From IMG/VR virus record IMGVR_UViG_3300033076_001609, positions 1-44,823 of that record: a DNA stretch of 44,823 nt; one strand, given 5' to 3'. The translations under genes were made by a program, and so were the position numbers. Below the pieces are notes generated by a model that ran no database searches, had not been told where the DNA came from, and saw nothing but the letters and a program-made list of their open reading frames with translations. The DNA comes from a virus (lineage: Duplodnaviria > Caudoviricetes). This document shows positions 1 through 19,035 of the stretch, in pieces; positions within the stretch are counted from its first letter, which is position 1; each line of letters opens with the position of its first letter.

Positions 1-2666
1 ATTTTATCTTTCCAACTTTTGACGTATCCGACGACTTGATTACCGCTCGTGTTTGCTTCAATGTATTGGGCAACTGGGCGAGTTGGAAGCGTAAAGCCAA
101 GTGCTTCGATTTGAGCTTCCGACTTTGTTAATTCTCCGCCACCGTTTTGATCGAATAGGAGTTTAACATCGCCGCTCAGCCCTTCAAAAGCTCCTAACGA
201 ATACAGAAAACGACAGACGCGTGATGTACACTCACGCTTTTTGATACGGGTTCGAAAATCTTCGATGGACAAAAATTGACCACCTTTTTCCAATTCTTCA
301 GCAATGCGTGCCGCTCCGGTTTCGCTAAGATTTTTGACAACACTAAGCGGCATCACAATTTCATCACGATCATTGATTGAAAAAGTTGCCGCACTCACAT
401 TGACGTGAGGTGTGTTAACCTTAACGCCTATGCGAGCGGCTTCCAGTAGGTATGCTTGAATGTTGTCAATATCGTAGTTCAACATCGCGGCATAGAAAAC
501 TTTCGGATGATAGCGCTTAAACCACGCCATCTCATAAGCAATTTTTGCGTAAGCTGTGGAGTGAGCAAGATTGAACGAGTAGCGCGTGTGTGTATAAAGT
601 TCGCCCCACAGTTGCTCAAGTGCGGCTGATGCAATATCAATCTTACACTCTCTAATGAAAGTTGCATGAAGATCGACAACTTTTTGCTCCCACACCGGAT
701 CTCCAGGTTTTGCTTTGAAGATTACGCGACGAAGCATATCAGCTTCAGCAAGAGAACCTCCAAGTACTGTTGCAAAAATCATCATAACTTGTTCTTGAAA
801 AACGATGGCGCCATTTGTTTCAACGAGAATCGCATCGATCGCCGGATGAATTTTTCTAGGATTACGCTTCAAATCGGGATAAATTTCAGCAGTCCCGGCA
901 TCGAGCGCACCGGGGCGGTAGAGTGAATTGATAACACAAAGGTCAGCGAAGGTTCGTGGTGCGATTTTCATTGTGAGCAACCGAATACCATCACTGCCAG
1001 TCCACTGAAAAATTCCAAGCACGTTACCTTCACAAAAAATATCGAAAACTGGCGAGTTGTCGATAATTTCAGGACAATCAGTTGCGCCGATCATTGATCG
1101 CATCATACGCAATTGAGTTAGAGCACTCAATCCAAGTAGATCAAACTTAACGACTCCAACGCGAGTAAGCTCCTTCTGATCTCCTTCAGTCCAAGCAGCG
1201 ACAAGCGCCCCACCAACCTGCTCTGCTGGCAGCGGCATTTCGGTGATTACAACGCCGCCTGCATGTTTTCCAGCATGGCGAACTTGATCTTGCATAGCCT
1301 CGTATGCCGGCATGGCATCTGGGTGAAGAGCCGTCCACTCAGCAAACTCATCGCTGTCTGGACCTTTTTCAGAAGCCGAATCGCTCAGTGTACGATCAAG
1401 TTTCAAAACGCGAGCAATATCATCGATGGTATTTTTATGTCCATAATGCGAATAAGTTGCAACCGGGAATGCTCCCCATTTTCGAACAGCGTAATCGATA
1501 ACTTCTTGCCGGCGCTCAGATTCGAAGTCAACGTCGACATCGGGATATTCTTTGCGAAATGGATTCAAAAAACGCTCAAAATAGAGTTTATAGTAGACCG
1601 GATCGACTGAAGTGATTCCAAGAAGATAGAGAACATACGAGCCAGCAGCCGATCCGCGACCTGGACCAACCATGATACCTTCATTTTTCGCCCACCCGAC
1701 TATATCATCAAGAATGCAAAAGTAGTCGAGAAAGTCCATGTCTGTGAGAGTTTTCAACTCAAGAGCACAACGTTCATGGCGGACTTCGGCATCAGTCGGA
1801 TTCTTGGCAACGTCTTGATGGAGAGCATCTGATACTTTTTGAAAAAAAGCAGCGCGAAGGTGTGTTGCTTTCGGCAACGTCGGCGGCGCAAACATGTTCC
1901 AAGTTTCAGCACCCTCAGCAAATTCTTTGGCCGTTCTCATCCAAGTGATAACCTCAGAATCACTGAAAAATGCTCGACCTCGTTGAACCATTTCATCACG
2001 ACTTTTTAACCAAAGTGAATCGCTGTCGTATGAAAAACCTTTACGACATTCAGTCAAAATTTTGTGAACACGGGAAAGATTTGAAAAAGGATAGTGAACA
2101 TCATTCGTAACCAAAATCGGCAACTCGAGTTTCTTGGCAACTGCAAGAGGGCGAGATGTTGTGTTTTCATCGAGGACAAACATCATCTCAGCATAAATGT
2201 TTTGTTGGCCAAAAATGTCACGCATTGTTCCGGCAAAGTGAACGGCATCACTCAATGAGCCGGCATGAATTGGCGACGCCGGGCATCCGGTAAAAAGTGC
2301 GATATCACCAGCATTTTGCGCCATGATTTCTGGAGTCATGAGTGGAAAACCGCTGGTCCAGTTTCGGTGGGCGGCATTCGACATCGCGATCAAATTTTTG
2401 AATCCGTTATAGTTGCGGGCATTTAGAGTGATGTGATGTCGTTGCCCGTTCCATAGCATATAAGCTTCAAGACCGATGATTGGTTTGATGCCGTTATCTT
2501 TGCAAGCCGAATAGAAAGCTACAGTATTGCCGAGTGTGCCGTGATCGGTCATGGCAAGCTCAGAGTACCCAAGGTTTGCAGCCTGCTTAACAAGTTTCTC
2601 AACTGTGCAAAGACCGTCTGGGCTCGCATCAGTATGAACGTGACAGTGGCAAAAATCTACAGACAT
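1..2666 (-). CDS. dnaE: DNA polymerase III alpha subunit (family C, DnaE-like); 3' end runs off the window
   Basis: Absent from the ORF track because it has no stop in the window. Manual translation from ATG at 2666 gives MSVDFCHCHVHTD...AMTDHGTL...IIGLEAY...VTNDVHY (PHP domain), VGPGRGSAAGS, FERFLNP, PDVDVDF and VKFDLLGL (catalytic Asp motifs), GKHAGGVVI, VFQEQVM and YSFNLAHS. Confidence 0.97.
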   Translation of the reverse strand, partial: MSVDFCHCHVHTDASPDGLCTVEKLVKQAANLGYSELAMTDHGTLGNTVAFYSACKDNGIKPIIGLEAYMLWNGQRHHITLNARNYNGFKNLIAMSNAAHRNWTSGFPLMTPEIMAQNAGDIALFTGCPASPIHAGSLSDAVHFAGTMRDIFGQQNIYAEMMFVLDENTTSRPLAVAKKLELPILVTNDVHYPFSNLSRVHKILTECRKGFSYDSDSLWLKSRDEMVQRGRAFFSDSEVITWMRTAKEFAEGAETWNMFAPPTLPKATHLRAAFFQKVSDALHQDVAKNPTDAEVRHERCALELKTLTDMDFLDYFCILDDIVGWAKNEGIMVGPGRGSAAGSYVLYLLGITSVDPVYYKLYFERFLNPFRKEYPDVDVDFESERRQEVIDYAVRKWGAFPVATYSHYGHKNTIDDIARVLKLDRTLSDSASEKGPDSDEFAEWTALHPDAMPAYEAMQDQVRHAGKHAGGVVITEMPLPAEQVGGALVAAWTEGDQKELTRVGVVKFDLLGLSALTQLRMMRSMIGATDCPEIIDNSPVFDIFCEGNVLGIFQWTGSDGIRLLTMKIAPRTFADLCVINSLYRPGALDAGTAEIYPDLKRNPRKIHPAIDAILVETNGAIVFQEQVMMIFATVLGGSLAEADMLRRVIFKAKPGDPVWEQKVVDLHATFIRECKIDIASAALEQLWGELYTHTRYSFNLAHSTAYAKIAYEMAWFKRYHPKVFYAAMLNYDIDNIQAYLLEAARIGVKVNTPHVNVSAATFSINDRDEIVMPLSVVKNLSETGAARIAEELEKGGQFLSIEDFRTRIKKRECTSRVCRFLYSLGAFEGLSGDVKLLFDQNGGGELTKSEAQIEALGFTLPTRPVAQYIEANTSGNQVVGYVKSWKDK

Positions 2667-2687
2667 AAGCGTTTCTCCGTAAAGCAA

Positions 2688-3497
2688 TTAGAAGTTGATT
2701 TTTGTAAATTCAATCTTATTAAGAGAAGTCGACGTATACCATGGTTGAATACGAAATCCATGGTATCGCCCATCTTTTTGAAACGGCAAATGATCATCGG
2801 CCATTGCAAATGCCGAATTCTTGTAAAACTCAACGGTTGACGAAACAGATTCAAAATTCCAATCAAGACTACAATCAAGTGGTTCGTCAACCTCGACACC
2901 AAGATGCTTCGTTGATTCATAAACATGCAATGAGCCAACGTTAGCAACAATTCGCCCATCATATTTTCCAAGCAACTCAGAAAAAAACTGCAAAACACTT
3001 GAATACATAACGATATCCATTGGGAGTCCAAAAACAGCATCCCACGATCGAACATTAACAATCGCACTGAGTCGCGATTTTTCAATGAAGAATTGCATCG
3101 AGGTTGTGCACGCGATATCACTGGCATCCTGATTGCGATTGTTAAAAAACAAAACCGCACGTCGAGTATCACGATCATCCTCAAGAAACTTAAGAACTCT
3201 CTCGTATTGCGGAGCAAGGCGTGTTCCGTAATCACTCTGTTTCTCGTAAAGTGAATGATTGGCGCGAGGTGCGACTTTTTTGATTAACTCAATGTCGAAA
3301 AAGCCGCCGAGAAGCATCGCTGACTCGAGGAGTGCCAGGCGATGGTTGATGTTTTTGCGCTGAATCAAAAGTCCAGATTCAAAGCTGAGTGAGCAACCGC
3401 GAATCTCGTAAGTCGTGATTCCGCGCGGGCTGCGTTTTGTTCCATTTTGGATGATGTAATCGACGAGGTCGGTGTATGAGAAGATTTTTGTATCCAT
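2688..3497 (-). CDS. Thymidylate synthase-fold protein, probably dCMP hydroxymethylase-like (cytosine-specific)
   Basis: DTRRAV, catalytic Cys in IACTTSMQF, RSWDAVFGLPMD and GSLHVYE. Asp occupies the position of the Asn in canonical ThyA (GxPFN). Confidence 0.85.
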   Translation of the reverse strand: MDTKIFSYTDLVDYIIQNGTKRSPRGITTYEIRGCSLSFESGLLIQRKNINHRLALLESAMLLGGFFDIELIKKVAPRANHSLYEKQSDYGTRLAPQYERVLKFLEDDRDTRRAVLFFNNRNQDASDIACTTSMQFFIEKSRLSAIVNVRSWDAVFGLPMDIVMYSSVLQFFSELLGKYDGRIVANVGSLHVYESTKHLGVEVDEPLDCSLDWNFESVSSTVEFYKNSAFAMADDHLPFQKDGRYHGFRIQPWYTSTSLNKIEFTKINF

Positions 3498-3560
3498 AGC
3501 GCTGTATCCTTTCGAGGTGTAAAAAAATTCGTTCTGAAAAACAATCTCATCAATAAAGAG

Positions 3561-3589
3561 ATTATAAAACAGAACGAAAATTTTGTAAA
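3561..3589 (-). promoter_or_regulatory. Sigma70-type promoter upstream of the TS-fold gene
   Basis: Minus strand reads TTTACA-17 nt-TATAAT. Confidence 0.7.
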
Positions 3590-3613
3590 GTTTTTAGTTG
3601 TCAGAAGGGGCTA

Positions 3614-4603
3614 TCAATCACGAAATTTAGCCAAGCGTTCAAAAGTCGACAGCCAATCGTCTTCAGTGCCAACGAGCAGTCTAACTTGTTTTAACTGAGA
3701 TTCTAAAATTGATCGATATTCGTCATCACTCTCTGGAGAATGATTGGGGTTGAAACAATCAAGCTCGCTGCGAACGTCGCAAAAAGTGTAAGACGGGAGT
3801 TGGAAGTTGATTAGACCGGCGGCGGCAGCTTCATGCCAGCGAGGACTGATAAAACAACTACTCATGTACTGTTTCTTGCCAAAATGTATCGTGTAGCGAG
3901 AATGCGACAAAATATTAATCAAATCTTTTTGGTCCGAGCGACCTTCAAACTTCATAGTTGGAAAATCGTCAAAAAGATTTTCGGCGCCTCGACTTCCAAT
4001 CCAATGCCCAAAAATTGATCCGCTCGGATGATTGATCAAAATATTTTTCATTTGATCGTATCGGTCATAATTGTTACCGACATAGACAAAATTTCGTACT
4101 CGATCTTTAAGCGGAACATAGACATAATTTTCGAGATCGTGCTGGCATGGAAAAAACATCGTTGTACAACCAGCTGGTGGTACAAGACAAGGTACCCCAA
4201 TCTCAAAAACACAACCGGCATTATACAATACATCGCCAGCTTCGGCGATGCTATCGCCTTCCATGTCGCAATCGTGGATGTAAACTGGAATGTTATGTTT
4301 GATTGCAAAATTGATGAGCATCATTTGGCGAGAATATGCCTCGTTGCGCTGCTGATAACGCTCAATGTTCGGCATTTTCCATCGCCAACAAAGAAAAATC
4401 ATGTCAACGTTTTCCGGCTGCGCAAGCCAATAGTTGAAAATATCCTCGCGATTCGATGACTCGCCAACAGAAACATTTTGAAGATACATTTGATTTTTGG
4501 CAAGTTTTTCATCAAGCCAACTCCAAGCACCGGCTAAAGCCATCGCTGTTTTGAAGTTGTTATCAGTCAGCCCAGGCTCGTAAGTATTGAACAAGATATT
4601 CAT
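3614..4603 (-). CDS. GT-B glycosyltransferase, T4 DNA beta-glucosyltransferase-like
   Basis: C-terminal nucleotide-sugar domain: FVYVGNNYDR, SIFGHW, KFEGRS, TIHFGKKQYMSSCFISPRWHEAAAAG. This resembles, from memory, the T4 BGT segment IGDKNYNDNFITLRVWE. Start overlaps the kinase stop (ATGA). Confidence 0.75.
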   Translation of the reverse strand: MNILFNTYEPGLTDNNFKTAMALAGAWSWLDEKLAKNQMYLQNVSVGESSNREDIFNYWLAQPENVDMIFLCWRWKMPNIERYQQRNEAYSRQMMLINFAIKHNIPVYIHDCDMEGDSIAEAGDVLYNAGCVFEIGVPCLVPPAGCTTMFFPCQHDLENYVYVPLKDRVRNFVYVGNNYDRYDQMKNILINHPSGSIFGHWIGSRGAENLFDDFPTMKFEGRSDQKDLINILSHSRYTIHFGKKQYMSSCFISPRWHEAAAAGLINFQLPSYTFCDVRSELDCFNPNHSPESDDEYRSILESQLKQVRLLVGTEDDWLSTFERLAKFRD

Positions 4604-5139
4604 CGAAGAACTTCTCCTTTCTTTTGCTGCTCAACAAGAAAAAAATCACTCATAATTTGATGAGCAACATCCTGTGAATCAGTGAACGTCGTGTCGTAAC
4701 GAAAACCGGTGATATCAGACATATCCCAATAGCGATAAAAAAGATTGCTGATTGCATCGATATCACCTTCATAAGTACGATTCGTTGCTTCATGACGTTT
4801 TACAAGTGTTTCACGGTCGGCGGTTAAAAGCATATTTACACACAGAAGGCGCGACATCAAGCTATCAAGATAAGAAAAAATTTTGAGATCGATTGGACGC
4901 TGATACAAAGAAGCATAAACAAGTTCAGTTGTGATTCCTCGATCGATGATGTGTATCGTATCATCATCAACTGCAAGTGGTAAAATCTGACCGATCAAAA
5001 CGTGATGGCGAGATATGGGGCTCATTGAAAATTTTTGAACCACAGCATTGCGGCCTTGAGAGAAAAAAAGTTTTCGCAACTCCTGAGCAGTTGTTGTTTT
5101 ACCGACCCTTGCTTGGCCTTCAAGAAAAAGTAGCGACAT
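4600..5139 (-). CDS. dNMP kinase (thymidylate kinase-like P-loop), candidate modified-dCMP kinase
   Basis: LFLEGQARVGKTT P-loop, IIDRG motif and lid L..RH; sits inside the modification cluster. Confidence 0.8.
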   Translation of the reverse strand: MSLLFLEGQARVGKTTTAQELRKLFFSQGRNAVVQKFSMSPISRHHVLIGQILPLAVDDDTIHIIDRGITTELVYASLYQRPIDLKIFSYLDSLMSRLLCVNMLLTADRETLVKRHEATNRTYEGDIDAISNLFYRYWDMSDITGFRYDTTFTDSQDVAHQIMSDFFLVEQQKKGEVLR

Positions 5140-5155
5140 AAATCTCCTTTCACTT

Positions 5156-5665
5156 CTATGAAAGTTTTAACAAAACCTTACGATTTGGAATGCTGATTAA
5201 CTGCTCAAATAGCTTAGCATTCTGTTTTCGTGTTTTTGATTCTAACACATCTTTGACGAACAGTACAACGCCAAACGGCATAGTTTTCACTTTACCGTCT
5301 GAAAAAGGAAGATTCAAAGATTTTGAGGCCTGCTCGTCGATTACAAAATAGCGATACATCTTGTAAAGAATGCGGTTATAGACCGAGCAGCGGTAAGCGG
5401 CTAAATCATCGTCTACGGTTTGACAACGCTGAGAATAAGCGAGCGAAAAATTGCCAGAACCGGCGATCTCCCGACAAGCTTTGAGCTCTGCAGAAAGATC
5501 ACCGGTTGGCTTCTCAATCAAGAAAAGAACATCGCTCTGCTCACCTTGTTCACCGTTTTCACAAACATCACTAAATTTATGAACCAATTGCGGCGATTCG
5601 CTACGGCCGCATTTTGACGTACAAAGTGTGCACTCAGCGACAGCTTTTTCGATTGAGTTAGGCAT
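5156..5665 (-). CDS. Degenerate family-4 uracil-DNA glycosylase-fold protein (4 Cys, putative Fe-S)
   Basis: CTLC...DVLFLIEKP...SLAYSQRC...AAYRCSVY parallels UDG4 CxxC...MFVGEAP...YITNVVKC...IxxCxPY. The GxPFVG and HPS motifs are missing. Confidence 0.55.
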   Translation of the reverse strand: MPNSIEKAVAECTLCTSKCGRSESPQLVHKFSDVCENGEQGEQSDVLFLIEKPTGDLSAELKACREIAGSGNFSLAYSQRCQTVDDDLAAYRCSVYNRILYKMYRYFVIDEQASKSLNLPFSDGKVKTMPFGVVLFVKDVLESKTRKQNAKLFEQLISIPNRKVLLKLS

Positions 5666-6074
5666 TGGCTTTCATCATCTCCAGTTTTTCGGCTACACGA
5701 TCAAAGTTGCGCAAGTTTTTTGCCCGATAGCGAGCTACCAATTCATCAGCATCCCAACCACGAAGGTTTGCCCACGTGAGAACATAATGCAAAACATCGA
5801 TCACTTCTTCATCAGTCGGAGCAAGATCAGTTGGGAAGCGCGGCTTCCATGGCTTAGTTTCGGTAACCCATGGGGCGAAAGCTTCGGCTGCCTCGACAAC
5901 CATCTGCGAAAGCGTAGATTTCAAAGCAGAGTCTGGCGGTAAAAGATAGACGCCGCAAACGTTGCTCAACATTGATTGCCATGCGAGCATTGAAGAGAGA
6001 TGGCCGTCAGCCTCGACTTGCTCAGCATCCTCGGCATCAAAAAGAAATTTTGGTGTTTCAAGTTCGTTAGACAT
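5658..6074 (-). CDS. All-alpha dimeric dCTP/dUTP pyrophosphatase (T4 gp56-like)
   Basis: LSSMLAWQ, VVEAAEA, KPWK and EEVIDVLHYVL...YRAKNLRNFDR match the pattern of the dimeric dUTPase/gp56 family. Confidence 0.85.
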   Translation of the reverse strand: MSNELETPKFLFDAEDAEQVEADGHLSSMLAWQSMLSNVCGVYLLPPDSALKSTLSQMVVEAAEAFAPWVTETKPWKPRFPTDLAPTDEEVIDVLHYVLTWANLRGWDADELVARYRAKNLRNFDRVAEKLEMMKANA

Positions 6075-6095
6075 TGTGTGAATTCTCCTTTCAAA

Positions 6096-6710
6096 TTAAA
6101 AATCTTCCTCAACGATATTGAATTTTTTACCGCCTGAACCACCACTAACAAGACGTTCATACTCGTCGGTAGTAAGCTCAGCTTTCAACAAGTTTTCGAT
6201 TTCAGACGGTGTTCCTTCAAAAATCTTTGTAACAACAAAATCAACAAGAGAATCTTGATTGCCGACCTCTTCAGTATTGATCTTGCCATAAGTTCCTTGA
6301 GACGTCATTGTGTATTTTGCGAACTCGCCGTCGGTACGTGTGAGATCGATGATTAAGCCTCGAATTCCGCCAGCATTTTGGTTGCTCAATCGACGGAGCT
6401 GGTTCCAAAAAGATTTTGGCCCGCGAACAAAGCGCAAAGTTTTCTTACCGTCAGAATCTTTGATTAGCATTGGAACGATAACCGAAAGTCGTGGTTTTAG
6501 GGAAAGCTTTTCAGACGGATCTTTAGGATCGTCAGTATACACCCAAATGATTTCTCGATCCTGTCGATAAAGGTGAATTAGATTTGCTTCAACAACATGA
6601 TCGATATCGACCAAAATTTGTGCTCTAACAGTGCCAGACGGCGGCGTCCAAAGAAGGCGATGACTTTCGTTGTTAGCTTCCTTAACGCCGACTTTAATCT
6701 TCTTAGCCAT
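6096..6710 (-). CDS. Putative single-stranded DNA-binding protein (gp32-like), paralogue 2
   Basis: Colinear with 7238-7873 (DPS, VP[ML]L, GLI.DLTRT.GE..KY); acidic tail ending VEEDF. Start placed at MAKKIK after a GGAG RBS. Confidence 0.6.
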   Translation of the reverse strand: MAKKIKVGVKEANNESHRLLWTPPSGTVRAQILVDIDHVVEANLIHLYRQDREIIWVYTDDPKDPSEKLSLKPRLSVIVPMLIKDSDGKKTLRFVRGPKSFWNQLRRLSNQNAGGIRGLIIDLTRTDGEFAKYTMTSQGTYGKINTEEVGNQDSLVDFVVTKIFEGTPSEIENLLKAELTTDEYERLVSGGSGGKKFNIVEEDF

Positions 6711-6724
6711 GTTTTTGCTCCGTT

Positions 6725-7138
6725 TCACTCTTGATTGGCGTCGATTTTTGACTTAAAGTCGATGCCTAATTTCTCCAACTCAACCTCAGTTAAAACGGTT
6801 ATGTGATGCCCGGCAGCCCTAACCGCGTCAAGTTTCTTTGAATCTTTCTTCAGCGTATAACTCGACTTGATTTCTACATATCCCAACTGATTAACCCAAA
6901 AATCTGGACTGTAATTATGCTTACCACCAAATCGATCAGTGTATTCGAGTTTAATTTTGGGGTGTGCAGTAAAGATTATATCATTCTCATCGAGCCATTT
7001 TGCATAGCGATATTCGTATGAACCTTGAAGCTTGATTTCTTCACCGTTTTTAAGCTTCAAAATGTGCCAGTTGGATGATATTGATGGGCGTTTCGATGAA
7101 AACCGACGCTTGCCATTTGCCGAATTTTTCTTTTTCAT
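6725..7138 (-). CDS. PD-(D/E)XK endonuclease (TnsA-N / endonuclease I-like)
   Basis: SYEYRYAKWLD...YSPDFWV...YVEIKS with a basic N-terminus; start MKKK after GGAG. Confidence 0.75.
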   Translation of the reverse strand: MKKKNSANGKRRFSSKRPSISSNWHILKLKNGEEIKLQGSYEYRYAKWLDENDIIFTAHPKIKLEYTDRFGGKHNYSPDFWVNQLGYVEIKSSYTLKKDSKKLDAVRAAGHHITVLTEVELEKLGIDFKSKIDANQE

Positions 7139-7163
7139 TGTTGCGATCTCCATTGAGGGAGCC

Positions 7164-7217
7164 TAAAGAGCGCCAACAGCTTACGCATTTAGGAGCATAA
7201 ATTGTTGGCGCTCTTTA
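7164..7217. terminator. 15-bp perfect inverted repeat between SSB-1 and the endonuclease gene
   Basis: TAAAGAGCGCCAACA (7164-7178) pairs with TGTTGGCGCTCTTTA (7203-7217). Confidence 0.6.
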
Positions 7218-7237
7218 AGTCGGCAAGGTGATTAAGG

Positions 7238-7873
7238 TTAGAAGTCTTCTGTGGTTACAACGCCAGGTTTGCGAGAAGAGCCAACCGAATTATCACTCGA
7301 CGCGGATTGGCCGCGGAACTTGGCGACGAATTGTTCATAGGTGCCGCCAGTTTGCTTCGTAATGTAATCAATGATGCCAGCGCGATCTTTCACGTCGAGC
7401 ATATCAATCACATCTTGGCTGCTGGGAATCTCATCAGCTTCAGGCATGTTTTTGGCGCGTCGACCAGTATTCGTAACAGAATACTTCGTAGTCAGTCCTT
7501 CGCCAGTTCGCTTCACCTTAACAATAAGGCCAACGAGAGATTCACCGAGTGCCTCGCTGATATCATGCAATTGACTATGCACGGTGCGAGTACACGACCA
7601 AATCTTAATCACCTTATTGCCGTCGATATCGACCAAAACTGGAACATAAGCACGATACGAAGGTTTTGCTCCAATATCGCGAGATGGATCGCCAACATCA
7701 GTACAAGTCCAAATCAAGGCCGGATTAAAATCCCACAAAGCAACCTGCTCAGCTGAAACGATATCACTGACATCATGCAAAATCACGACGTCTTTCGTTT
7801 CACCAGCCTTCAAACCCCAAAACTTGTTAGTATTTTGTTCTTTAGGGCTCGAACCAATACGCACTGTAGACAT
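7238..7873 (-). CDS. Putative single-stranded DNA-binding protein (gp32-like), paralogue 1
   Basis: KFWGLKAGE...RAYVPVLVD...IKIWS...KVKRTGEGLTTKYSV, typical of gp32-like phage SSBs; acidic tail TTEDF; strong AAGGAG RBS. Confidence 0.7.
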   Translation of the reverse strand: MSTVRIGSSPKEQNTNKFWGLKAGETKDVVILHDVSDIVSAEQVALWDFNPALIWTCTDVGDPSRDIGAKPSYRAYVPVLVDIDGNKVIKIWSCTRTVHSQLHDISEALGESLVGLIVKVKRTGEGLTTKYSVTNTGRRAKNMPEADEIPSSQDVIDMLDVKDRAGIIDYITKQTGGTYEQFVAKFRGQSASSDNSVGSSRKPGVVTTEDF

Positions 7874-7943
7874 AGAAAAATCTCCTTTTTGTGTGTGTAA
7901 AAAAAATGAATGTTGTGTTGAAAGTGTGTGTAATATGATTAAG

Positions 7944-7987
7944 CATATCGACTGTTATATCTTATCACACAACAGTCGATATGTAAA
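7944..7987 (-). promoter_or_regulatory. Promoter for the SSB operon with an overlapping 13-bp inverted repeat
   Basis: TTTACA (7987-7982)-17 nt-TAAGAT (7964-7959); arms CATATCGACTGTT (7944-7956) and AACAGTCGATATG (7971-7983). Confidence 0.65.
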
Positions 7988-7992
7988 ATCCG

Positions 7993-9795
7993 TCAACGTA
8001 CAATTGAGTTAATCACATTGAAAACTACACCAGCGTCATCAGTGTTGAAATTGTTTTCGCGACCATAGATATAATTGTTTGAATCATAAGCATCTTCATC
8101 GACGCTTATGCTCACTACAACAATACCTTGGGAGCGAATCTCGTTCACTACGATTCTTGTTCCTTCCTCGCCGAGTGAGATATCACCACGTGGCATTCCA
8201 TCGCTGATAACGATCAAACTCTTTTGATTCCGCAACTCTGAAAACATTTTTGAAACAGCCATGATAGCAAAATCATCAGAGTTAGAATACATAACGCCAT
8301 CATAGTCAATGATTTTTTCAAAGCGCGGCTTCATAACTATGTTAGCATCCTCATCCCAATCCTTTAGAATGATTAGCACAACATCTTGTCTGATGCCGTT
8401 GACATCCCAGTCAGCGGTGTGCCCAACAACTTTTATACGATGGCGAGAATCTTGAAGACCGATTGCCGCTCCAATTGCAGCTTTTGCTGCTTTTTCAAGT
8501 TTGATATCACTGCGCATACTACCGCTGATATCGACGAGAATGATGATCTCTTGCTCGCCAATGTGTTCAAACTCATTTGGTTGGGCAAAAATTCGGTTAT
8601 CAGTCGCGATGCGGTAAAGCTGGCGAATGTTGCTCCCTCGATTCATTTGAAGACCATAAGGGCGATTCGTTTGAGTGCGAGCTAACATCAATTGAGAGAA
8701 TTCCAAAAAGCGATGATCTGGCTCGATTACCATATTCTTACTTGTAAAGCTAGACCAGCGAGAATATTCGAACCCAAGGCTTTTGAGAAACTCGTCATCG
8801 ATGTTGTTTACAATCATCAATCTTGTGAATTTACCTGCATTATTGGAATACTCAAATCTCACGTTAACATTCTCATTGGTGATTTCATAATCACGTTCGC
8901 TGTTCTGCAGAATCGTTGAAAGTTGCTCTGAGTCAGATTTGATCTCAGTGTTGCTCATTGAAAGCTTCTTACGCAACTCATCGATTTTCTCATCAGCTGA
9001 GTCAGGCTTGATAGCATTACCATCACTACCGCTGGGTGATTTGGCGTTCACATCTTCTTTATCATTCGGCAAATCACTCGTCATGAATTCGTAAATTTTA
9101 ATGGCATGTAAAAGTCGATTCTCAACTTTTGAAATTGAGCGAGATTGCAAAAACATATTCTCAAGGCGAAGCGTAAATGAATCCTTTGACTCAGATTTGA
9201 GATAGAAATTTTTCAAAAAGTACATTGCAGCCATATAAGCGTCAAACTCTTGATAAGTCGAAATTTTACCAGTGAGTTTTCCATAAACCTCATCTCGTTC
9301 TTCAACCGGGAAGAGATAGTTTAAGCGAGATTTTGTAGCCCATTCAAAGTTTTTTAGTGAAGAACGGTCGACATTATCGATATAAATATCTTCAACGATT
9401 TGTGCGATTTCGGCAACATTATCGTCGAGAGATGAGATATCAATGCCGGCCATACTGGCTACGGTGCTGAAAGGAACAACGGTGTGCTTAAGGTGCAAAA
9501 TTTCGTGAATTGCCGAACCGAACAGCGCTGATAAAGATTCTTCTTCACTGGCGTCTGGATTGATACGATCTTCGCTGTTTTCAGCGATGTAGAGGCGGCT
9601 TAAGGTGATTTGCTTTTTCTCCAAATCAATACAAGCAGTCGGAACATTGCTGATAAAGACACGAACATCCTTCATCTTTACAATATCCTTGACGATAGAT
9701 AAAGAAATCCCAACAACGTTAGTCGCAAATTTTTCGATTTCGGCGTGTTGTGAAAAACTTGGAATTTTTACTGAGGTATACCATTCTTTCAACAT
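7993..9795 (-). CDS. vWA domain protein with N-terminal HExxH zincin-like motif (CobT/MoxR-partner type)
   Basis: HEILH, EDIYID, MIDAS LVDISGSM and LIVISDGMP. Start placed at MLKEW (9795), downstream of the promoter and RBS. Confidence 0.88.
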   Translation of the reverse strand: MLKEWYTSVKIPSFSQHAEIEKFATNVVGISLSIVKDIVKMKDVRVFISNVPTACIDLEKKQITLSRLYIAENSEDRINPDASEEESLSALFGSAIHEILHLKHTVVPFSTVASMAGIDISSLDDNVAEIAQIVEDIYIDNVDRSSLKNFEWATKSRLNYLFPVEERDEVYGKLTGKISTYQEFDAYMAAMYFLKNFYLKSESKDSFTLRLENMFLQSRSISKVENRLLHAIKIYEFMTSDLPNDKEDVNAKSPSGSDGNAIKPDSADEKIDELRKKLSMSNTEIKSDSEQLSTILQNSERDYEITNENVNVRFEYSNNAGKFTRLMIVNNIDDEFLKSLGFEYSRWSSFTSKNMVIEPDHRFLEFSQLMLARTQTNRPYGLQMNRGSNIRQLYRIATDNRIFAQPNEFEHIGEQEIIILVDISGSMRSDIKLEKAAKAAIGAAIGLQDSRHRIKVVGHTADWDVNGIRQDVVLIILKDWDEDANIVMKPRFEKIIDYDGVMYSNSDDFAIMAVSKMFSELRNQKSLIVISDGMPRGDISLGEEGTRIVVNEIRSQGIVVVSISVDEDAYDSNNYIYGRENNFNTDDAGVVFNVINSIVR

Positions 9796-9835
9796 TTTAA
9801 GAACCTTTCTGAAAAAATTTACTGCTTCCGATAAA

Positions 9836-9931
9836 TCTATTCTATCATAAGTTGAACAGAATGTACATAACGAGTTTTGAAACAACTCATCCTAGGTCAT
9901 TGTAGGATGACGCTAGGATGAGTTTGGTGGT
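9836..9931 (-). promoter_or_regulatory. Copy A of a 96-bp hairpin-plus-promoter cassette
   Basis: ACCACCAAA, hairpin, AAAACTCG, then TGTACA-17-TAGAAT with extended TG; shared with 11188-11283 and 20550-20645. Confidence 0.8.
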
Positions 9932-9946
9932 TATGATGTGTAAAGC

Positions 9947-11143
9947 TTAAAGGAAAAATTTAGACTTAGGAGTGTAAATCCCGACGGCAGAGTTTACAAC
10001 GTCGATAATCTGCCGGCGCGCATTTTGATTTGAACAGCGAAGAACGACAGCATTTTGAAAAGATGAACGAATCGACATACCAGCTGAAACTTGGGAAGCG
10101 ATCATGAGTGTTGTACGTGTGCTACACTCAACAACGCTAAGATTTCGAATCGAGGTTGCAAGATTAACGATCGTAGACGCTGCAGTTTGGTCTACGCCGG
10201 TGCGATTTTTCAAAACATCGATTTCGCGCTCAGTAGGAAGCGGGCCGACTTCACAGATAAAAGAAAAGCGATTTGAAAGAGCGGCATCTAGTTGAAAAAC
10301 GCCAGAGTAGTTATGCCCTAGATTCATCGTTGCGACGAACACGACGTTGTTGCCGACCTTGATTTCCTCACCATCATAAACTGTCGTGTTGCGACCATCA
10401 TCCAACAACGGATAGATAGTGTTTGTCAGCCATGGCTCCAGACGATTTAGTTCATCTAAAACGATGACGACATTACCTTCTTCAAGCTTTTTTGCAAAAA
10501 GGCTCTTGACAAACATCGTGGAACCTTCTTTTGCAATACGTTGGCCGAACCACTCTTCAGGATCGCGAATTGTCGGGCAATTCATCCGAAAGAAATCTAA
10601 ACCAGCTGATTGGGCATATTTTTCGGGAATCGTCGTTTTACCAAAGCCGCTTGGCCCAACCATCAAAATCTTAACAGGCATTTCTGGGTTAGATCGGCGA
10701 ATTTTATCGGCATAAAAGAAAGATTCATTGGTAGGATTGTCGACGAAGAAAAAATTAGAGTTAATCCGAACTTCGTCAGGCTTTTGAACGGCCTGAGCTT
10801 CAGATTGAGATTCGCCTTCCGATGCGGCTCCGACTCGAACAATCTCACCATTCGACCGCAATTTGAAGGTTAGAGATTCTTTCCACAAGTCATGAATTTT
10901 TCTGCTTTCCTCAAGAGTTACCGGAACAGCCGATCGGAAAAAGCGTCGACTTGCCAAGTTGGCTTTCGTTAAAGATACCAAAACCCAACCTGATTTAAGT
11001 TGCTTCAAGTCTGAATGATAGTAGCGAGAATAGATTGAAGGAGCTTTTTCGTCAAAGCTAGAGAAAACAACCTCACGAACCAAAACATAACCTGCATTAT
11101 CGTAACATTTGTGAGCTAAAAAGATGAAAAGTTGCTGTGACAT
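9947..11143 (-). CDS. MoxR/CbbQ/CobS-family AAA+ ATPase
   Basis: GPSGFGKT (Walker A), IVLDELNR (Walker B), VATMN and LDAALSNRF; directly upstream of the vWA gene. Confidence 0.92.
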   Translation of the reverse strand: MSQQLFIFLAHKCYDNAGYVLVREVVFSSFDEKAPSIYSRYYHSDLKQLKSGWVLVSLTKANLASRRFFRSAVPVTLEESRKIHDLWKESLTFKLRSNGEIVRVGAASEGESQSEAQAVQKPDEVRINSNFFFVDNPTNESFFYADKIRRSNPEMPVKILMVGPSGFGKTTIPEKYAQSAGLDFFRMNCPTIRDPEEWFGQRIAKEGSTMFVKSLFAKKLEEGNVVIVLDELNRLEPWLTNTIYPLLDDGRNTTVYDGEEIKVGNNVVFVATMNLGHNYSGVFQLDAALSNRFSFICEVGPLPTEREIDVLKNRTGVDQTAASTIVNLATSIRNLSVVECSTRTTLMIASQVSAGMSIRSSFQNAVVLRCSNQNARRQIIDVVNSAVGIYTPKSKFFL

Positions 11144-11327: not shown

Positions 11328-13223
11328 TCAAACAATTTCGCAAGCGCCGGCTACGCAACTAAACTCTCGCTCGCCGCCAGTTGTCATGAAGTAATCAACT
11401 TTAGGAAAAACGTCCCAGTTGATAACCGGATAATCTAACAAAAGACGCATATATAAATTGCCATCAATTTTTTCATAAGGAGCATTTTTGTAAACAGCAT
11501 CACTTTTAGGAAAAAAAGAAAGCCCAGAGATAATGTTTTGATTCTCATACATCCATGTAATGATCTCGCCTACTTCGTTATCATTGTACGAAATCGTAAC
11601 ACTTGGATTGTGTTCAGTATAAAAACGCTTCAAGTTTTTCCAATAGTTCAATTGATCGATCGCAGAAAGATCATCAATGAATACTGAACCTTCCGGAGAT
11701 TTTACCAAAAAGTCGAAGCTTGAAGTTTGAGCTACACCATCTGTCGGCGAATTCGGCACATCGTACATTCTCAAGAATACCGCCATCGGCGAATCATCCT
11801 TGAGTTGCATGCGACGAATGTAGAACTCAGAAAAACGAGCGTGACCGCCGCTCGCCGTTCCAAAGAAAGTCGCACTGTTCCCAGCTGGCTTTGCACAAGT
11901 GCTTGCCGCCGCTTGCTTGATTCCAAGTTTTTGCGCGTACTCTTTGTTTGTTTCATTAACAACTTCCTTCAAAACTTCAAAAACATCAGCTTGAATGTCA
12001 GGATCGTTAAACATCGCGTTATCTCGCTGACCGTTCAAATCAACGCCGAGCAATCGCTCATCAATTTGATTTTTTCGCCAATCTCGACGAACATATTTTG
12101 TAAAATTATCAACGCTTGCCATGATCGTTCCCCAAATTGCCGCAAGGCGTACCTTATTTATGATTTCGTTGATTGAGTCGGTCGATCGAATGTTGGCAAT
12201 CGAGAGATTACAAAATTGAAACGGGCGTAAAATGATCTCGCCGCATGGATTCACGCCAAAATCTGGATGAAAAGTGCGGCGCTCTGGAATCGTATGAATC
12301 ATCGCCGCGCGGCTAACAACACCTGGCTCGCCAGTTTTCTCGTCGAAGCCAGGGCCAAAGGTGGCGAAAAACCAATCAAGACTTTTGTAACCCTCAATCA
12401 CAACAGAGTTGTTTGCAAAATAGCGTTGCTTGTTTGACTGAATTACGTTAAAATCTTTGCAGTGAAGCATTTCAAAATCATCGGCATCAAAAAGGCAAAT
12501 CATGGCCGAACGGCGATAGCCGCCGCTCACAATTGCTGCCGCGATAAAGCACTGAATGTCGTGAACCTCAATTGGCTTGAGCTGCCGCCCTGCCGCGTTA
12601 TCCAAAATTTTGGTGATGCTCTCAATAGATTTTTTGAGAGGTTCGGCTCCGGAAGCTACACCTCCACGCGTTTTAAGTGGGGCACCAGACGGGCGAATTT
12701 TTGAGTAGTCGATTTGGCAACGAACACCGGCAAAGGAAAGTTCAAGGAACATTTTAAAAGCATCACACCAACCTTCGATAGAATCTTCAACAACAATCGG
12801 CGGAAATGAAAAAATGCTTGTAATGTCGACGACCGGATACACGGTCGGGAGTTTTTCGACGAAGCGGCGCTCGACCGTGTATCCAACGCCAACTCCGATC
12901 CCAAGAAGATACATCGTTTCTACGAATGAATTCAAATCAACCATCGGTAGATATGAGCAATTAAAAATCGCTTCCGGGTGCCGACTTGCTTCACGGCCAG
13001 CTGTTTGAAAAAGGCGCATCGACGGAAATGCATCAGTTTTCAGCATGCCTTCACGAAGTTCAGCAAAGGTATCCTCAGACAAGCGGTCGCCGCAAATCTC
13101 ACGAGCATGATTGATCGTTCGATCAACGGCTTCCTCAAAAGTTTCGCGCCGACCGATATCCCAATTCCAGAGCGCATATTTTTCGTAGAACTGAACATAT
13201 TGCATATCATTTTCAAAAATCAT
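11328..13223 (-). CDS. nrdJ: Class II (adenosylcobalamin-dependent) monomeric ribonucleotide reductase
   Basis: FPSMR, FNCSY, GVGVGY, VSGGYRRSA, GVNPCGEI, FCNLS, KPAGN, EHNPSVT and C-terminal CVAGACEI. Confidence 0.95.
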   Translation of the reverse strand: MIFENDMQYVQFYEKYALWNWDIGRRETFEEAVDRTINHAREICGDRLSEDTFAELREGMLKTDAFPSMRLFQTAGREASRHPEAIFNCSYLPMVDLNSFVETMYLLGIGVGVGYTVERRFVEKLPTVYPVVDITSIFSFPPIVVEDSIEGWCDAFKMFLELSFAGVRCQIDYSKIRPSGAPLKTRGGVASGAEPLKKSIESITKILDNAAGRQLKPIEVHDIQCFIAAAIVSGGYRRSAMICLFDADDFEMLHCKDFNVIQSNKQRYFANNSVVIEGYKSLDWFFATFGPGFDEKTGEPGVVSRAAMIHTIPERRTFHPDFGVNPCGEIILRPFQFCNLSIANIRSTDSINEIINKVRLAAIWGTIMASVDNFTKYVRRDWRKNQIDERLLGVDLNGQRDNAMFNDPDIQADVFEVLKEVVNETNKEYAQKLGIKQAAASTCAKPAGNSATFFGTASGGHARFSEFYIRRMQLKDDSPMAVFLRMYDVPNSPTDGVAQTSSFDFLVKSPEGSVFIDDLSAIDQLNYWKNLKRFYTEHNPSVTISYNDNEVGEIITWMYENQNIISGLSFFPKSDAVYKNAPYEKIDGNLYMRLLLDYPVINWDVFPKVDYFMTTGGEREFSCVAGACEIV

Positions 13224-14166
13224 CGTAAACGATCTCCTTTGGTTGTTTTGATGCTGCTGAAATTGACGATGCGATCTCTGCGTCGAGCAGCGCGGCGCGA
13301 GATTCGCTTAGAGGGCTTTTAATGTAATCTGGCAGAGGATCAGCGGTAGAGCCTTGTTTGATTTCATTCAAAAATGATGTTAAGCGCAACGGCCGTTCAT
13401 CAATCAGACGCTGAACCTCAGGTTCGATCAATTTTTCAATCTCAGCAAACTCTTTGTTCGATAGGCGCAAAAATTCGACGTCCGGCGTTGGAGTCCAACA
13501 AATTGAATCCTTAAACATGCAAAAACCGCATTCATACGATTTTCGAAAATCAGCGGGAATTGGAGGAATCCACTCGCCATCAATCGCTGTTTTTGCAATC
13601 ATAACCTTGTTAAATACGAGTTTCAAAATTCGTTCATCGATCTCTACCGGAAAAACTCGCATTGCAATCTTCATGTTTTCGCCGAGAACATTTCGGCTGA
13701 CGTAAATTATGTTTACGTTTTGAATACCGGTAACCGCTGAGTAGCAATACGTTTGCCAGAGATGGCCGAATTTCGGTTCGTATGGGAGTTTGCCGCAACT
13801 TTTAACTTCGCCTAAAGTTAGACGGCCAAGGTTATCGATGTAGACGAGATCAACTTTGCCAGAAATTTTTGGTTCAACCTTTGGTATGTAGATATTAGTT
13901 GCAAAAAGCTTATCATTTCGAACCAAAGCATTAACGAGAGCAGCTTCGATGCCGTTGCCGATGTTCATGTAGAGAGATGATGTGGATGATGTATTTTTTG
14001 CGTTTGGCCAATCGCGAAACATCAAAAAGTTTTGGCGAGGGCAGAAAGCCGCCGTCGCACCGTAAAAATGTTTCAAGGCTTTGAAATCATCCTGTTCTTT
14101 GAGTAGTTCGACGAGATAATCTTCTTCACTTTTTGTTTTGAATGCACCGCCGATTTTAATTGCCAT
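13213..14166 (-). CDS. Cas4-like PD-(D/E)XK exonuclease with Fe-S cysteines
   Basis: FCPRQ, GKVD, GEVKS, QTYCY and ECGFCMFKDSIC; start MAIKIG after AAAGGAG. Confidence 0.85.
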   Translation of the reverse strand: MAIKIGGAFKTKSEEDYLVELLKEQDDFKALKHFYGATAAFCPRQNFLMFRDWPNAKNTSSTSSLYMNIGNGIEAALVNALVRNDKLFATNIYIPKVEPKISGKVDLVYIDNLGRLTLGEVKSCGKLPYEPKFGHLWQTYCYSAVTGIQNVNIIYVSRNVLGENMKIAMRVFPVEIDERILKLVFNKVMIAKTAIDGEWIPPIPADFRKSYECGFCMFKDSICWTPTPDVEFLRLSNKEFAEIEKLIEPEVQRLIDERPLRLTSFLNEIKQGSTADPLPDYIKSPLSESRAALLDAEIASSISAASKQPKEIVYDDF

Positions 14167-14527
14167 TGGAAGACTCCTTTTCACTACTATTGTTAGATGT
14201 TGTCGCGTCGTTAGAGAAAAAATTCACGAGCATCTCGTTAAAGATCTCGTGAATTTGTTTTCGCTTTGCCGTTTGGTGAATTTTTCGAACATCATAACCG
14301 GTTTTATAGAAAACTTGTTCTAGCTTTAAGTTTGATTTGTTGAGTTGATAAATGATAATTTCGCTATTGAGAATTAGGCCGATCATGAACCTTTTCTCAT
14401 CAATATAAATTTCCAATGCTTGCATCGCGTCCTCGTTAAACCCTGTTCCAAAACTTTCTTCGTATTTCGCCATCAGAGATTGGCGTTCGATACTGTACGG
14501 ATTGAACGCGTTGATTTTGTAGCTCAC
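14156..14527 (-). CDS. Hypothetical protein
   Basis: 123-aa ORF, GTG start with AAGGA RBS, packed in the operon. Confidence 0.65.
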   Translation of the reverse strand: MSYKINAFNPYSIERQSLMAKYEESFGTGFNEDAMQALEIYIDEKRFMIGLILNSEIIIYQLNKSNLKLEQVFYKTGYDVRKIHQTAKRKQIHEIFNEMLVNFFSNDATTSNNSSEKESSNGN

Positions 14528-15638: not shown

Positions 15639-15663
15639 TTTTTTCAAGGAAAGGTTGCTAACG

Positions 15664-17278: not shown

Positions 17279-18307
17279 ATGATTTTTCTCAAAAACATTC
17301 TCGGAGTTACGCAACCAAATCGCTCAGTTGCCGCAAAACTTTTGAAGCTACCGATTGCTGCTGATAACACGGCGAGTGTAGGATCGCGTGACAATATCGT
17401 TGAATTTGCGGCACGTGTTTGTTATGCTTCAGAGGCTAACCTAGGAACATCTCCAACTTTCATCGGAGATTGTGTCAGACGCGGACATGACGATATCATT
17501 GAACATTTTTGGCTTGCGGCAGAATTTCAACTCGGCTTTCATACCGATATTTATCGTATTATGTATATGATTCAAAGCAACTTCCCTTGGTCTAGAATGC
17601 GCTTTGATACGGTAGCTGGTGGTGAAAAATCTCTCACCATCAGTGCAAACGGCAGGGTCTGGAGGCAGATGATTCCGTTTCTGGAAAACACACTCGGCAT
17701 CAAAACTGCAAGCTTGCTGAGATTTTGTGCACCTCAATCTTTGGGTATTTCAAATTTCGTTACCGGTGCATATATAGACTATCTTCCACTTGGTTTTACC
17801 ATTGAATCTGAAAGCCAAATGTCTCTCACCGGGCAAAATGTAACGCTACTTGGCGCAATGCCAACTGTCGGCATGACGAACTTTTCGGCTGCAACTTTTC
17901 TCATCGAAAACATGAGTCGTGCCGCCGCCAATCAATTCACTCGCCATCGAACACTAAGTTTTAGCCAAGAGTCGCAACGTTATGTTGATATTGAAAAAAG
18001 CGCTGGCGGCGTTTTAGTTCCCGAATCAATTTCATCTCACGATCTTTTATGCAATGATTTTTTGGAACATTGGAACGCAACGCAAAAACTTTATCGAAAG
18101 TTTCGCGACGCCGGAATTCGCAAGGAAGATGCTAGAGCTCTGCTTCCTCAATCTTTTGCTACGCGTTTTGTCGTAAGCGGAAGTCAGGAAGGATGGTCGA
18201 ATTTTTTCAAATTAAGGCTCCATAAGAGCGCCCAAGCCGAGATCCGTTGTACAGCTGAAGTGATGTATGATATGATTAAATCATATATGAATGTCGATCT
18301 CGACTAA
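17279..18307 (+). CDS. thyX: Flavin-dependent thymidylate synthase (extended)
   Basis: AARVCY, GHDDIIEH, RHRTLSFSQESQRY, EDARALLP and RLHKSAQAEIR. Confidence 0.95.
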   Translation: MIFLKNILGVTQPNRSVAAKLLKLPIAADNTASVGSRDNIVEFAARVCYASEANLGTSPTFIGDCVRRGHDDIIEHFWLAAEFQLGFHTDIYRIMYMIQSNFPWSRMRFDTVAGGEKSLTISANGRVWRQMIPFLENTLGIKTASLLRFCAPQSLGISNFVTGAYIDYLPLGFTIESESQMSLTGQNVTLLGAMPTVGMTNFSAATFLIENMSRAAANQFTRHRTLSFSQESQRYVDIEKSAGGVLVPESISSHDLLCNDFLEHWNATQKLYRKFRDAGIRKEDARALLPQSFATRFVVSGSQEGWSNFFKLRLHKSAQAEIRCTAEVMYDMIKSYMNVDLD

Positions 18308-18399: not shown

Positions 18400-19035
18400 A
18401 TGAACGAAAACTATTTTGCGATTGAAGGAGTAGATGGGTCTGGTAAAAGCACTCAAATTGAGGCCGTTTACAAAAAACTTTTGAAAACGTGCAAAATCGT
18501 AAAAACAAGAGAGCCAGGCGGGACGCAATGGGGGCAAAAACTTCGTGAATTGATGCTCAATAACGGCACTAACAACGAAATTGCTCTCGCATTGGCAATG
18601 TTCAGCGACCGTGTTGAAACAGCCCAATCTATTGTCAAGCCGGCACTCGCCGATGGGGCAATTGTTCTTACAGATCGCTGTTGGCTGTCAACTCTCGCTT
18701 ACCAAGGAATTTCACCAATGCGTTATGCTGCAATCGAAAATATTTTTCGCAGCCTTTCGCCATTTATCTGTGAGCCGTCTTACATTTTTCTACTTGACGT
18801 TCCGGTCGATGTTGCCATGGGCTATTCAAAAAAGCGAGATGTTTTCGAACGCTCTGGCACTGGTTTTTATAATGGAGTTCGAACTCGATATCTTGAAATT
18901 GCTGAGGCGATGCCTGACAATATTTTTGTAATCGACGGTATGAAACCGGAAGTTGAAATCACAAGCTTCATTTACAACAAAATTCTCGACTTACGCAGCA
19001 AACCATTAGAACCATATAAGCAAAAACAAAATTAA
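18400..19035 (+). CDS. tmk: Thymidylate kinase
   Basis: IEGVDGSGKSTQ, TREPGGT, DR and STLAYQG. Confidence 0.95.
   Translation: MNENYFAIEGVDGSGKSTQIEAVYKKLLKTCKIVKTREPGGTQWGQKLRELMLNNGTNNEIALALAMFSDRVETAQSIVKPALADGAIVLTDRCWLSTLAYQGISPMRYAAIENIFRSLSPFICEPSYIFLLDVPVDVAMGYSKKRDVFERSGTGFYNGVRTRYLEIAEAMPDNIFVIDGMKPEVEITSFIYNKILDLRSKPLEPYKQKQN

Follow-up and report, generated by a model that had tools for sequence, protein, structure and literature searches.

The gene cluster upstream of the polymerase gene

We analysed a linear phage record from IMG/VR (IMGVR_UViG_3300033076_001609, 76% complete), and its whole length of 44,823 nucleotides is called the window here. Five minus-strand open reading frames (ORFs) lie immediately upstream of the gene for DnaE, a family C DNA polymerase, and their products point to a pathway that would modify cytosine in the phage DNA. 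The initial annotation had described five contiguous, partly overlapping genes, and this was confirmed: two junctions overlap, by 8 and 4 bases, a third is a 16-base gap, and 116 bases separate the genes for a glycosyltransferase (GT) and for an enzyme with thymidylate synthase (TS) fold. The cluster and the associated features are as follows (aa, amino acids; NTP and NMP, nucleoside tri- and monophosphate; UDG, uracil-DNA glycosylase; BGT, beta-glucosyltransferase; TMK, thymidylate kinase; 5hm-dCMP, 5-hydroxymethyl-dCMP).

5658..6074, minus strand: all-alpha NTP pyrophosphatase (MazG-like, dimeric dUTPase/T4 gp56 family), 138 aa; by Pfam dUTPase_2 and profiles
5156..5665, minus strand: degenerate family-4-type UDG-fold protein, 169 aa, with cysteines C12, C15, C81 and C93; by structure model
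4600..5139, minus strand: YorR/TMK-like NMP kinase, 179 aa, candidate 5hm-dCMP kinase; by PHROG and profile
3614..4603, minus strand: GT-B glycosyltransferase, 329 aa, of an unnamed family, remote relative of T4 BGT; by profile, hhalign and Atlas
3561..3589, minus strand: sigma70-type promoter-like site, TTTACA-17-TATAAT; consensus match 11/12
2688..3497, minus strand: TS-fold enzyme, 269 aa, with a dCMP hydroxymethylase signature (E58, D127, C130, D153, D161); by Pfam and PDB profiles
1..2687, minus strand: family C DNA polymerase DnaE, truncated at the record's left end; by Pfam PHP, DNA_pol3_alpha, finger and HHH_6
17279..18307, plus strand: ThyX; Pfam Thy1, E 7.5e-42
18400..19035, plus strand: canonical thymidylate kinase (TMK), separate from the cluster kinase; Pfam Thymidylate_kin, E 1.4e-37

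The TS-fold enzyme matched Pfam Thymidylat_synt (E 2e-14). Its best PDB matches were the CMP hydroxymethylase MilA (E 1e-10) and T4 gp42 (E 7e-10), both ranking above thymidylate synthases. In sequence alignments, 12 of the 12 active-site positions checked carry the same residue as gp42: E58, Y90, R112, R113, D127 and C130 correspond to gp42 E60, Y96, R123, R124, D145 and C148, and R150, S151, D153, D161, H191 and Y193 to gp42 R168, S169, D171, D179, H216 and Y218. The catalytic Cys (C130) and Glu (E58) are both present, and D127, C130, D153 and D161 were invariant in 14/14 close homologues. In E. coli ThyA numbering, the enzyme has L143D (D127), H147T (T131) and N177D (D161) and keeps D169 (D153, in RSWD), which gives it the Asp at 177 and the acidic residue at 143 of gp42-type enzymes. 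The cytosine-type Asp and the gp42 likeness proposed in the initial annotation are thus both borne out. In the literature, N177D marks use of dCMP, L143D/E a non-methyl product and D169N the 5-hydroxylases (PMC13326640), and Asp177 is found mostly in contigs with modified cytosine (PMC8670742). By the PMC13326640 rules, the combination of N177D, L143D and a retained D169 predicts 5hm-dCMP as the product; the enzyme is predicted to be dCMP-specific, narrowing the base to 5-hydroxymethylcytosine (5hmC).

Other identities were rejected for this enzyme. It carries D161, T131 and D127 where canonical ThyA has Asn177, His147 and Leu143, and it scored far below the NCBIfam cut-offs. A second dTMP synthase was ruled out by N177D and by the presence of ThyX, a separate dTMP synthase that makes the TS-fold enzyme unnecessary for thymidine; neither ThyX nor the separate TMK figures in the initial annotation. 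The 5-hydroxycytosine product of the RB69 gp48 type goes with D169N, and here D153 is kept; 5-methylcytosine (5mC) as end product was ruled out by L143D and the presence of the GT. Two cultured actinophages with TS matches, Phendrix and Shagrat, had no such cassette in their annotation.

For the GT, single-sequence searches returned only the protein itself or nothing, and an exhaustive search was needed to assemble its family of 104 proteins at E ≤ 0.001, window protein included. The only significant PDB match of the 92-sequence family profile was T4 BGT (E 9e-13), in agreement with the BGT-like glycosyltransferase of the initial annotation. Alignment with T4 BGT by hhalign (96.7%) showed ~14% identity and covered only the C-terminal domain; Atlas features gave 0.97 to T4-Gluco-transf clusters. 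The BGT residues R195, Y261, R269, E272 and W341, which we take to bind UDP, align to GT R181, Y246, R255, E258 and W317, conserved in 90, 89, 92, 91 and 69 of the 92 members. A GT-B fold and a homologous C-terminal UDP-binding domain are therefore common to both proteins. A single-sequence AF2 model was unusable (pLDDT 40) and was left out of the structure search. The catalytic base of T4 BGT is presumably Asp100, in the N-terminal domain; D113 of the GT, picked from strand order and an Asp in 90/92 members, is a candidate for this function. None of the 92 members matched PF09198 at E 0.01, so the family is separate from it; five of the 92, the window protein not among them, matched phrog_7922, the PHROG beta-GT. 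Neither this family nor a second GT family found in relatives had a match among 50,697 GenBank phage records.

The cluster kinase matched the PHROG thymidylate kinase (E 1.8e-8), and the best match of its profile was YorR (2axp/3kb2, E 4e-16); T4 gp1 (1dek/1del) was absent from the 47 PDB matches at E 0.01. The dNMP kinase claimed initially can be kept as a member of the NMP kinase family, but not as an equivalent of gp1. The kinase travels with the TS in relatives and is, by gene linkage only, a candidate 5hm-dCMP kinase.

The pyrophosphatase matched Pfam dUTPase_2 (E 2.8e-7), and its profile matched C. jejuni dUTPase (E 7.7e-5) and, at 96% probability, T4 gp56. With the metal-binding acidic motifs of the all-alpha dimeric dUTPase family, it is likely a dUTPase, and it may also convert dCTP to dCMP. 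A single comparison of MazG sequences from TS-bearing and TS-less phages with gp56 revealed no diagnostic residue. Gene 56 is more widespread than gene 42 among T4 relatives (PMC2993671), and more than one of the dimeric clusters includes enzymes with dCTPase activity (bioRxiv 10.64898/2026.10.06.757002).

Linkage, relatives and palindrome avoidance

The GT family occurred at 43 loci in viral contigs, scored for neighbours within the fetched 6 kb. A TS was present at 40 of them, always with D169 and N177D, and with Asp (35/40) or Asn (5/40) at position 143. Kinase matches were found at 40/43 loci and DnaE at 41/43; two of the three loci without a TS were short contigs. The loci are redundant and fall into 10 clusters at 50% GT identity, nine of them with a TS. 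The synteny that the initial annotation would lead one to expect is thus conserved in other phage contigs.

The closest GT homologue (P0020) and a 51% identical TS homologue (P0004) were each found on three contigs, the longest being 11,641 in both cases, which suggests another phage with the same GT-TS pair. TS variants with Asn at 143 (NTPC), N177D and D169 were seen at loci L037, L038, L040, L046, L067 and L010, a signature outside the PMC13326640 rules.

The eleven DnaEs of the window and its relatives formed one clade (support 100/100), in which record G001 is closest to the window (DnaE 66%, capsid 67%). Better-covered loci share the gene order von Willebrand factor A (vWA), single-stranded DNA-binding protein (SSB), MazG, UDG, cassette, DnaE. 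The cassette itself varied. In the window it consists of kinase, BGT-like GT and TS. At L037-L040 a flavin adenine dinucleotide (FAD) protein gene lies directly upstream of the kinase or GT gene, in a cassette with a kinase, a GT of the same family and a TS; the FAD protein of L037, the only one of the four searched in PDB, resembled UDP-galactopyranose mutase (E 2e-18). An NDP-sugar dehydrogenase, a short-chain dehydrogenase/reductase (SDR) epimerase, a kinase, an unrelated GT and a TS make up the cassette of L001-L003, L005 and L010. The cassette of L010 (record G003, positions 3877-8997) holds a dCMP deaminase, a UDP-glucose dehydrogenase-like gene, an SDR epimerase, an FkbM methyltransferase, a GT of the second family and a kinase, and GATC is almost gone from this record (3 vs 84 expected). 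In G001 the cassette position is occupied by a GT-B-like 404-aa gene alone (L007:8621-9835), with no TS or kinase. Its product matched neither of the two GT families; the gene may be a remnant, or encode a GT that acts on a different acceptor. G001 also encodes a Dam-like methyltransferase (L007, 16013-16915) and shows strong palindrome avoidance. G002 had no cassette genes at the locus. The cassette types are interleaved on the DnaE tree, where the window is sister to G001 (100/99), followed by G004 and L002, and this suggests that the cassette underwent repeated exchange or loss.

Two records with terminal repeats, G005 and G008, have a dCMP-type TS as their sole PF00303 match and no ThyX, and would depend on host dTMP. 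The second GT family (A7) also stands beside dCMP-type TSs in other phages (L031, L032, L034). Of these, L032 has a PolA with an N-terminal UDG-like region, and L034 an intact stand-alone UDG within the cassette (L034:5204-5755).

In phage T4, glycosylated 5hmC is known to protect the DNA from host nucleases, and where cytosines are shielded, restriction sites would need no avoidance. The observed/expected ratio of C-containing 6-base palindromes was 0.83-1.00 in seven TS-bearing records (0.87 in the window) and 0.57, 0.33 and 0.34 in three TS-less records, a complete separation (exact one-sided p 0.008) that was retained under a third-order model. The pattern was first noticed on six sequences and then extended to the 10 records. 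Strongly avoided palindromes numbered 4/44 in the window vs 12/24 in its sister G001 (Fisher p 0.0003), and 3/40 in G004 vs 26/42 in G002. Strongly avoided non-palindromes made up 0.2-5% across records and 1.6% in the window. For CGCG, observed/expected counts were 146/178 in the window, 5/35 in G001 and 0/53 in G002. The pattern fits genome-wide cytosine protection in the TS-bearing phages.

Sequence and Atlas searches with the UDG-like protein were uninformative, and only a model from a 10-sequence alignment (AF2, pLDDT 74) gave matches. The top matches were family 4/5 UDGs and UdgX (Foldseek E 9e-4; VIA Z 10.3, 9.9 and 9.2), with Z 10.3 to T. maritima UDG and 8.6 to the phiLo polymerase. 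The four cysteines are conserved, as in the Fe-S cluster of family 4, and are candidate metal ligands. The marks which we take to define a catalytic family 4 UDG, motif A (GE.PG), the uracil-binding Asn and the motif B His, are absent: motif A reads FLIEKP, Tyr replaces the Asn of TNAVRC, and the motif B His is missing. Orthologues at L037, L038 and L040 match Pfam UDG, and those of L037 and L038 keep NPG, TNAVRC and the motif B His. These motif definitions come in part from PMC13697223. Phage polymerases with associated UDG domains, some active and some inactive, have been described (PMC13697223, PMC3201878). Of the 10 records, 8 encode the UDG-fold protein, among them the two DnaE relatives that lack a TS, G001 and G002; none was found in G003, which has a TS and is 47% complete, or in G010. 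Because its catalytic motifs are lost and TS-less relatives have it, we read it as a gene of the replication module, probably a degenerate, inactive passenger with no step in the pathway; its presence at this locus in 6/7 TS-bearing records counts against a passenger. Of the extra UDG-fold component proposed initially, the fold stands and the place in the pathway does not. A second four-Cys UDG-fold-like paralogue lies far from the cluster (21885-22385, plus strand), with a 27% identical orthologue in G001 (L080:965-1492).

Proposed pathway and alternative readings

From the observed genes, families, active-site residues, linkage and palindrome statistics we infer every reaction of the following route. 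The TS-fold enzyme would convert dCMP to 5hm-dCMP, the cluster kinase or TMK would begin its phosphorylation, and a host kinase would then give the triphosphate. The phage DnaE would incorporate the modified dCTP, and the BGT-related GT would add a sugar to the hydroxymethyl group on finished DNA. Since no sugar-making gene was seen in the record, glucose from host UDP-glucose would be the simplest donor. The MazG-like enzyme would provide ThyX with dUMP and may in addition hydrolyse dCTP to dCMP, an activity on which the completeness of replacement depends; ThyX and TMK would supply dTTP. That the cluster makes sugar-capped 5hmC DNA, by a pathway that varies on the T4 route to glycosyl-5hmC and is carried by a DnaE phage, is the reading we favour at somewhat better than even confidence, and we regard it as highly probable that some glycosylated C5-modified cytosine is made. 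The T4-like pathway of the initial annotation gains support from the dCMP-type TS, the BGT-related GT, the linkage to DnaE and the genome-wide signal of cytosine protection, and loses its UDG step and the equivalence with gp1. The pathway is T4-like, but its kinase, polymerase and GT family model fall outside the T4 system.

Several observations weigh against this reading. The window still avoids CATATG, CGCGCG, GGATCC and TGATCA (the 4/44 above), and GGCC and GATC are at 0.65 and 0.71; protection may accordingly be incomplete or of recent origin. The records behind the palindrome test number 10, with incomplete genomes, a GC content of 33-55%, shared ancestry and probably different hosts, and G010 is tied to the set by its capsid gene only. 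In the GT, three approaches gave no secure counterpart of BGT Asp100: MAFFT placed it on the variable C72, a hidden Markov model of the N-terminal part gave no BGT match, and the hhalign match was C-terminal only. The cluster kinase is similar to the YorR-like kinases encoded next to the GTs of DLP3 and RB69, and PMC13326640, in the sections consulted, reports no activity for these two; in DLP3, RB69 and RL38J1 the YorR-like kinase beside the GT is apart from the gp1-type enzyme tested as dNMP kinase (Table 1 there). Finally, G001, whose record is 72% complete and spans the replication module, keeps a 58% identical pyrophosphatase orthologue with no TS or cluster kinase. The initial annotation's gp56-like dCTPase/dUTPase holds as to family (dUTPase_2, gp56 profile), while its dCTPase part is only putative, and with the destruction of dCTP also the complete replacement of cytosine.

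The same cytosine route could end in another product, if the GT took a different donor from the host, for instance UDP-galactofuranose, or if the TS made a different C5 adduct. The FAD protein at the closest GT loci (L037-L040), similar in L037 to UDP-galactopyranose mutase (E 2e-18), would suit such a product, as would the low identity of the GT to T4 BGT (~14%) and the Asn at 143 in 5/40 linked TSs. We consider it unlikely, though worth keeping in view: the window (record 76% complete) showed neither a mutase nor any other sugar gene, and under the PMC13326640 rules Asp143 and Asp169 of the window TS speak against 5mC and 5-hydroxycytosine. A working part for the UDG-fold protein in modification, such as the excision or recognition of cytosine that is unmodified or deaminated, has a slim chance. 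Its gene overlaps that of the pyrophosphatase, lies 16 bases from the kinase gene and is at the locus in 6/7 TS-bearing records, and Pfam UDG matches occur in the L037, L038 and L040 orthologues and in a gene inside the L034 cassette. The protein is, however, present in TS-less G001 and G002 and not found in TS-bearing G003, has FLIEKP as motif A, Tyr for the TNAVRC Asn and no motif B His, and has a paralogue remote from the cluster (21885-22385) that is also in G001; in addition, polymerase-linked UDG domains of phages are known in active as well as inactive form (PMC13697223, PMC3201878).

Two further readings seem very improbable to us. The sugar might be added at the nucleotide level, giving glycosyl-5hm-dCMP, which the YorR-like kinase would take as its substrate ahead of incorporation by DnaE. 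At most loci of either GT family the kinase and GT genes adjoin or overlap, the kinase is unlike gp1, and MilA, the nearest solved relative of the TS, works on a free nucleotide; T4 BGT, the nearest characterised relative of the GT, is on the other hand annotated as acting on DNA. We also know of no precedent for a polymerase using a glycosylated dNTP, which counts against this order of steps. The cluster might instead serve ordinary housekeeping: the TS would be a second thymidylate synthase alongside a kinase and a dUTPase, and the GT would work on a virion protein or the host surface. Since G001 keeps a GT-like gene at the locus without TS or kinase, a GT in this position does not require 5hmC as its acceptor, but the G001 protein matched neither GT family. 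Housekeeping would also have to accommodate N177D, L143D and H147T in a TS next to an already present ThyX, the BGT affinity of the GT, its linkage at 40/43 loci and the palindrome pattern.

Genome context, known systems and significance

The promoter-like site inside the GT-TS gap was the region's best of eight, with 10.7 expected by chance, and may allow separate transcription of TS and DnaE. Portal, HK97-type capsid, tail tube and tape-measure genes were found among 17 structural-region ORFs scanned, and no sheath family was found among them. This fits the siphovirus assignment, and together with the Pfam domains of DnaE it upholds the HK97-capsid siphovirus with DnaE described initially. 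For the Chloroflexota host suggested there we found no support: capsid-gene relatives were sought in GTDB genomes in two scans, with CRISPR spacers outside the search, and none was found, and the nearest named cultured DnaEs, from Streptomyces phages (~32% identity), are too distant to assign a host. Such a host is neither favoured nor ruled against by these comparisons.

Upstream of the cluster, two paralogous SSB-like genes (7238-7873 and 6096-6728, minus strand) flank a PD-(D/E)XK/TnsA-like endonuclease gene (6725-7153). L001 and L007 carry these three genes as well, and the N-terminal repeat region of the L001 nuclease resembles that of homing endonucleases. Beyond lies a pair encoding a vWA protein and a MoxR/CbbQ-type AAA ATPase (7993-11143, minus strand), which also precedes the cassette in those DnaE relatives that were examined. 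A class II-type ribonucleotide reductase (11328-13223), a Cas4-like nuclease (13213-14184) and an FtsK-like ATPase (15655-16845) were also encoded.

With the T4 glucosyl-5hmC pathway (gp56, gp42, gp1, beta-GT) the cluster shares the gp42-type active site, a BGT-related GT, a gp56-family pyrophosphatase and a TS gene adjoining those for GT and polymerase. The differences are a family B polymerase (gp43) in T4 and a family C DnaE here, gp1 and a YorR/TMK-like kinase, ThyA-type td and ThyX, as well as siphovirus-type structural genes on a 45-kb record at 76% completeness. The window GT is ~14% identical to BGT, no alpha-GT was seen in the window, and dCTPase activity is only putative here. The glycosyl-5-hydroxycytosine pathways of RB69, DLP3 and Pootjesviridae RL38J1 also have a TS homologue, a GT and a YorR/TMK-like kinase side by side, and RL38J1 has a UDP-galactopyranose mutase, as in the window's relatives L037-L040 (PMC13326640). 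Their TSs, however, carry D169N, whereas the window TS and all 40 linked TSs keep Asp, and unlike the window phage they belong to contractile-tailed families (PMC13326640). MilA, of the mildiomycin pathway, is the best solved match of the TS (E 1e-10) and shares the Asp at 143 and 177, but acts on CMP in an antibiotic pathway, whereas the window TS gene lies in a DNA replication module beside DnaE. The UDG-fold protein shares its fold (Z 10.3 to T. maritima UDG, 8.6 to phiLo polymerase) and four Cys with family 4 UDGs and the polymerase-associated UDG domains of SPO1, N4-like phages and phiLo; it differs in being stand-alone, in its lost motifs and in being linked to DnaE, not fused to PolA.

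We found no paper on a DnaE siphovirus with a dCMP hydroxymethylase and a BGT-like GT, although coverage was partial and the IMG/VR TS lists in the supplements of PMC13326640 and PMC8670742 might include relatives. Most cultured phages with hypermodified pyrimidines belong to contractile-tailed families (PMC13326640), and family C polymerases occur in only 28/415 polymerase-bearing viral genomes (PMC3201878). A small DnaE phage making glycosyl-5hmC would, if true, extend the strategy to a rare polymerase class. Both GT families, having no match among the GenBank phage records, are candidate new DNA-labelling enzymes. The cassette series of the relatives, with three to five small genes each that lend themselves to expression in E. 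coli, is a ready test set for new sugar-modified bases, and paired genomes with and without the TS show lost restriction-site avoidance, a sequence-only sign of base modification. More tentatively, and at somewhat less than even confidence, we propose an uncultured lineage of DnaE phages that replaces cytosine with 5hmC and in which one locus is a plug-in glycan cassette. The cassette would use host sugar only (window), galactofuranose (mutase and the same GT family), or sugars that are oxidised, decarboxylated or methylated (NDP-sugar dehydrogenase, SDR epimerase and FkbM methyltransferase with the unrelated GT). If true, this would mean undescribed DNA bases, a family C polymerase adapted to a replaced base, and an inactive Fe-S UDG fold that may serve the polymerase as an accessory.

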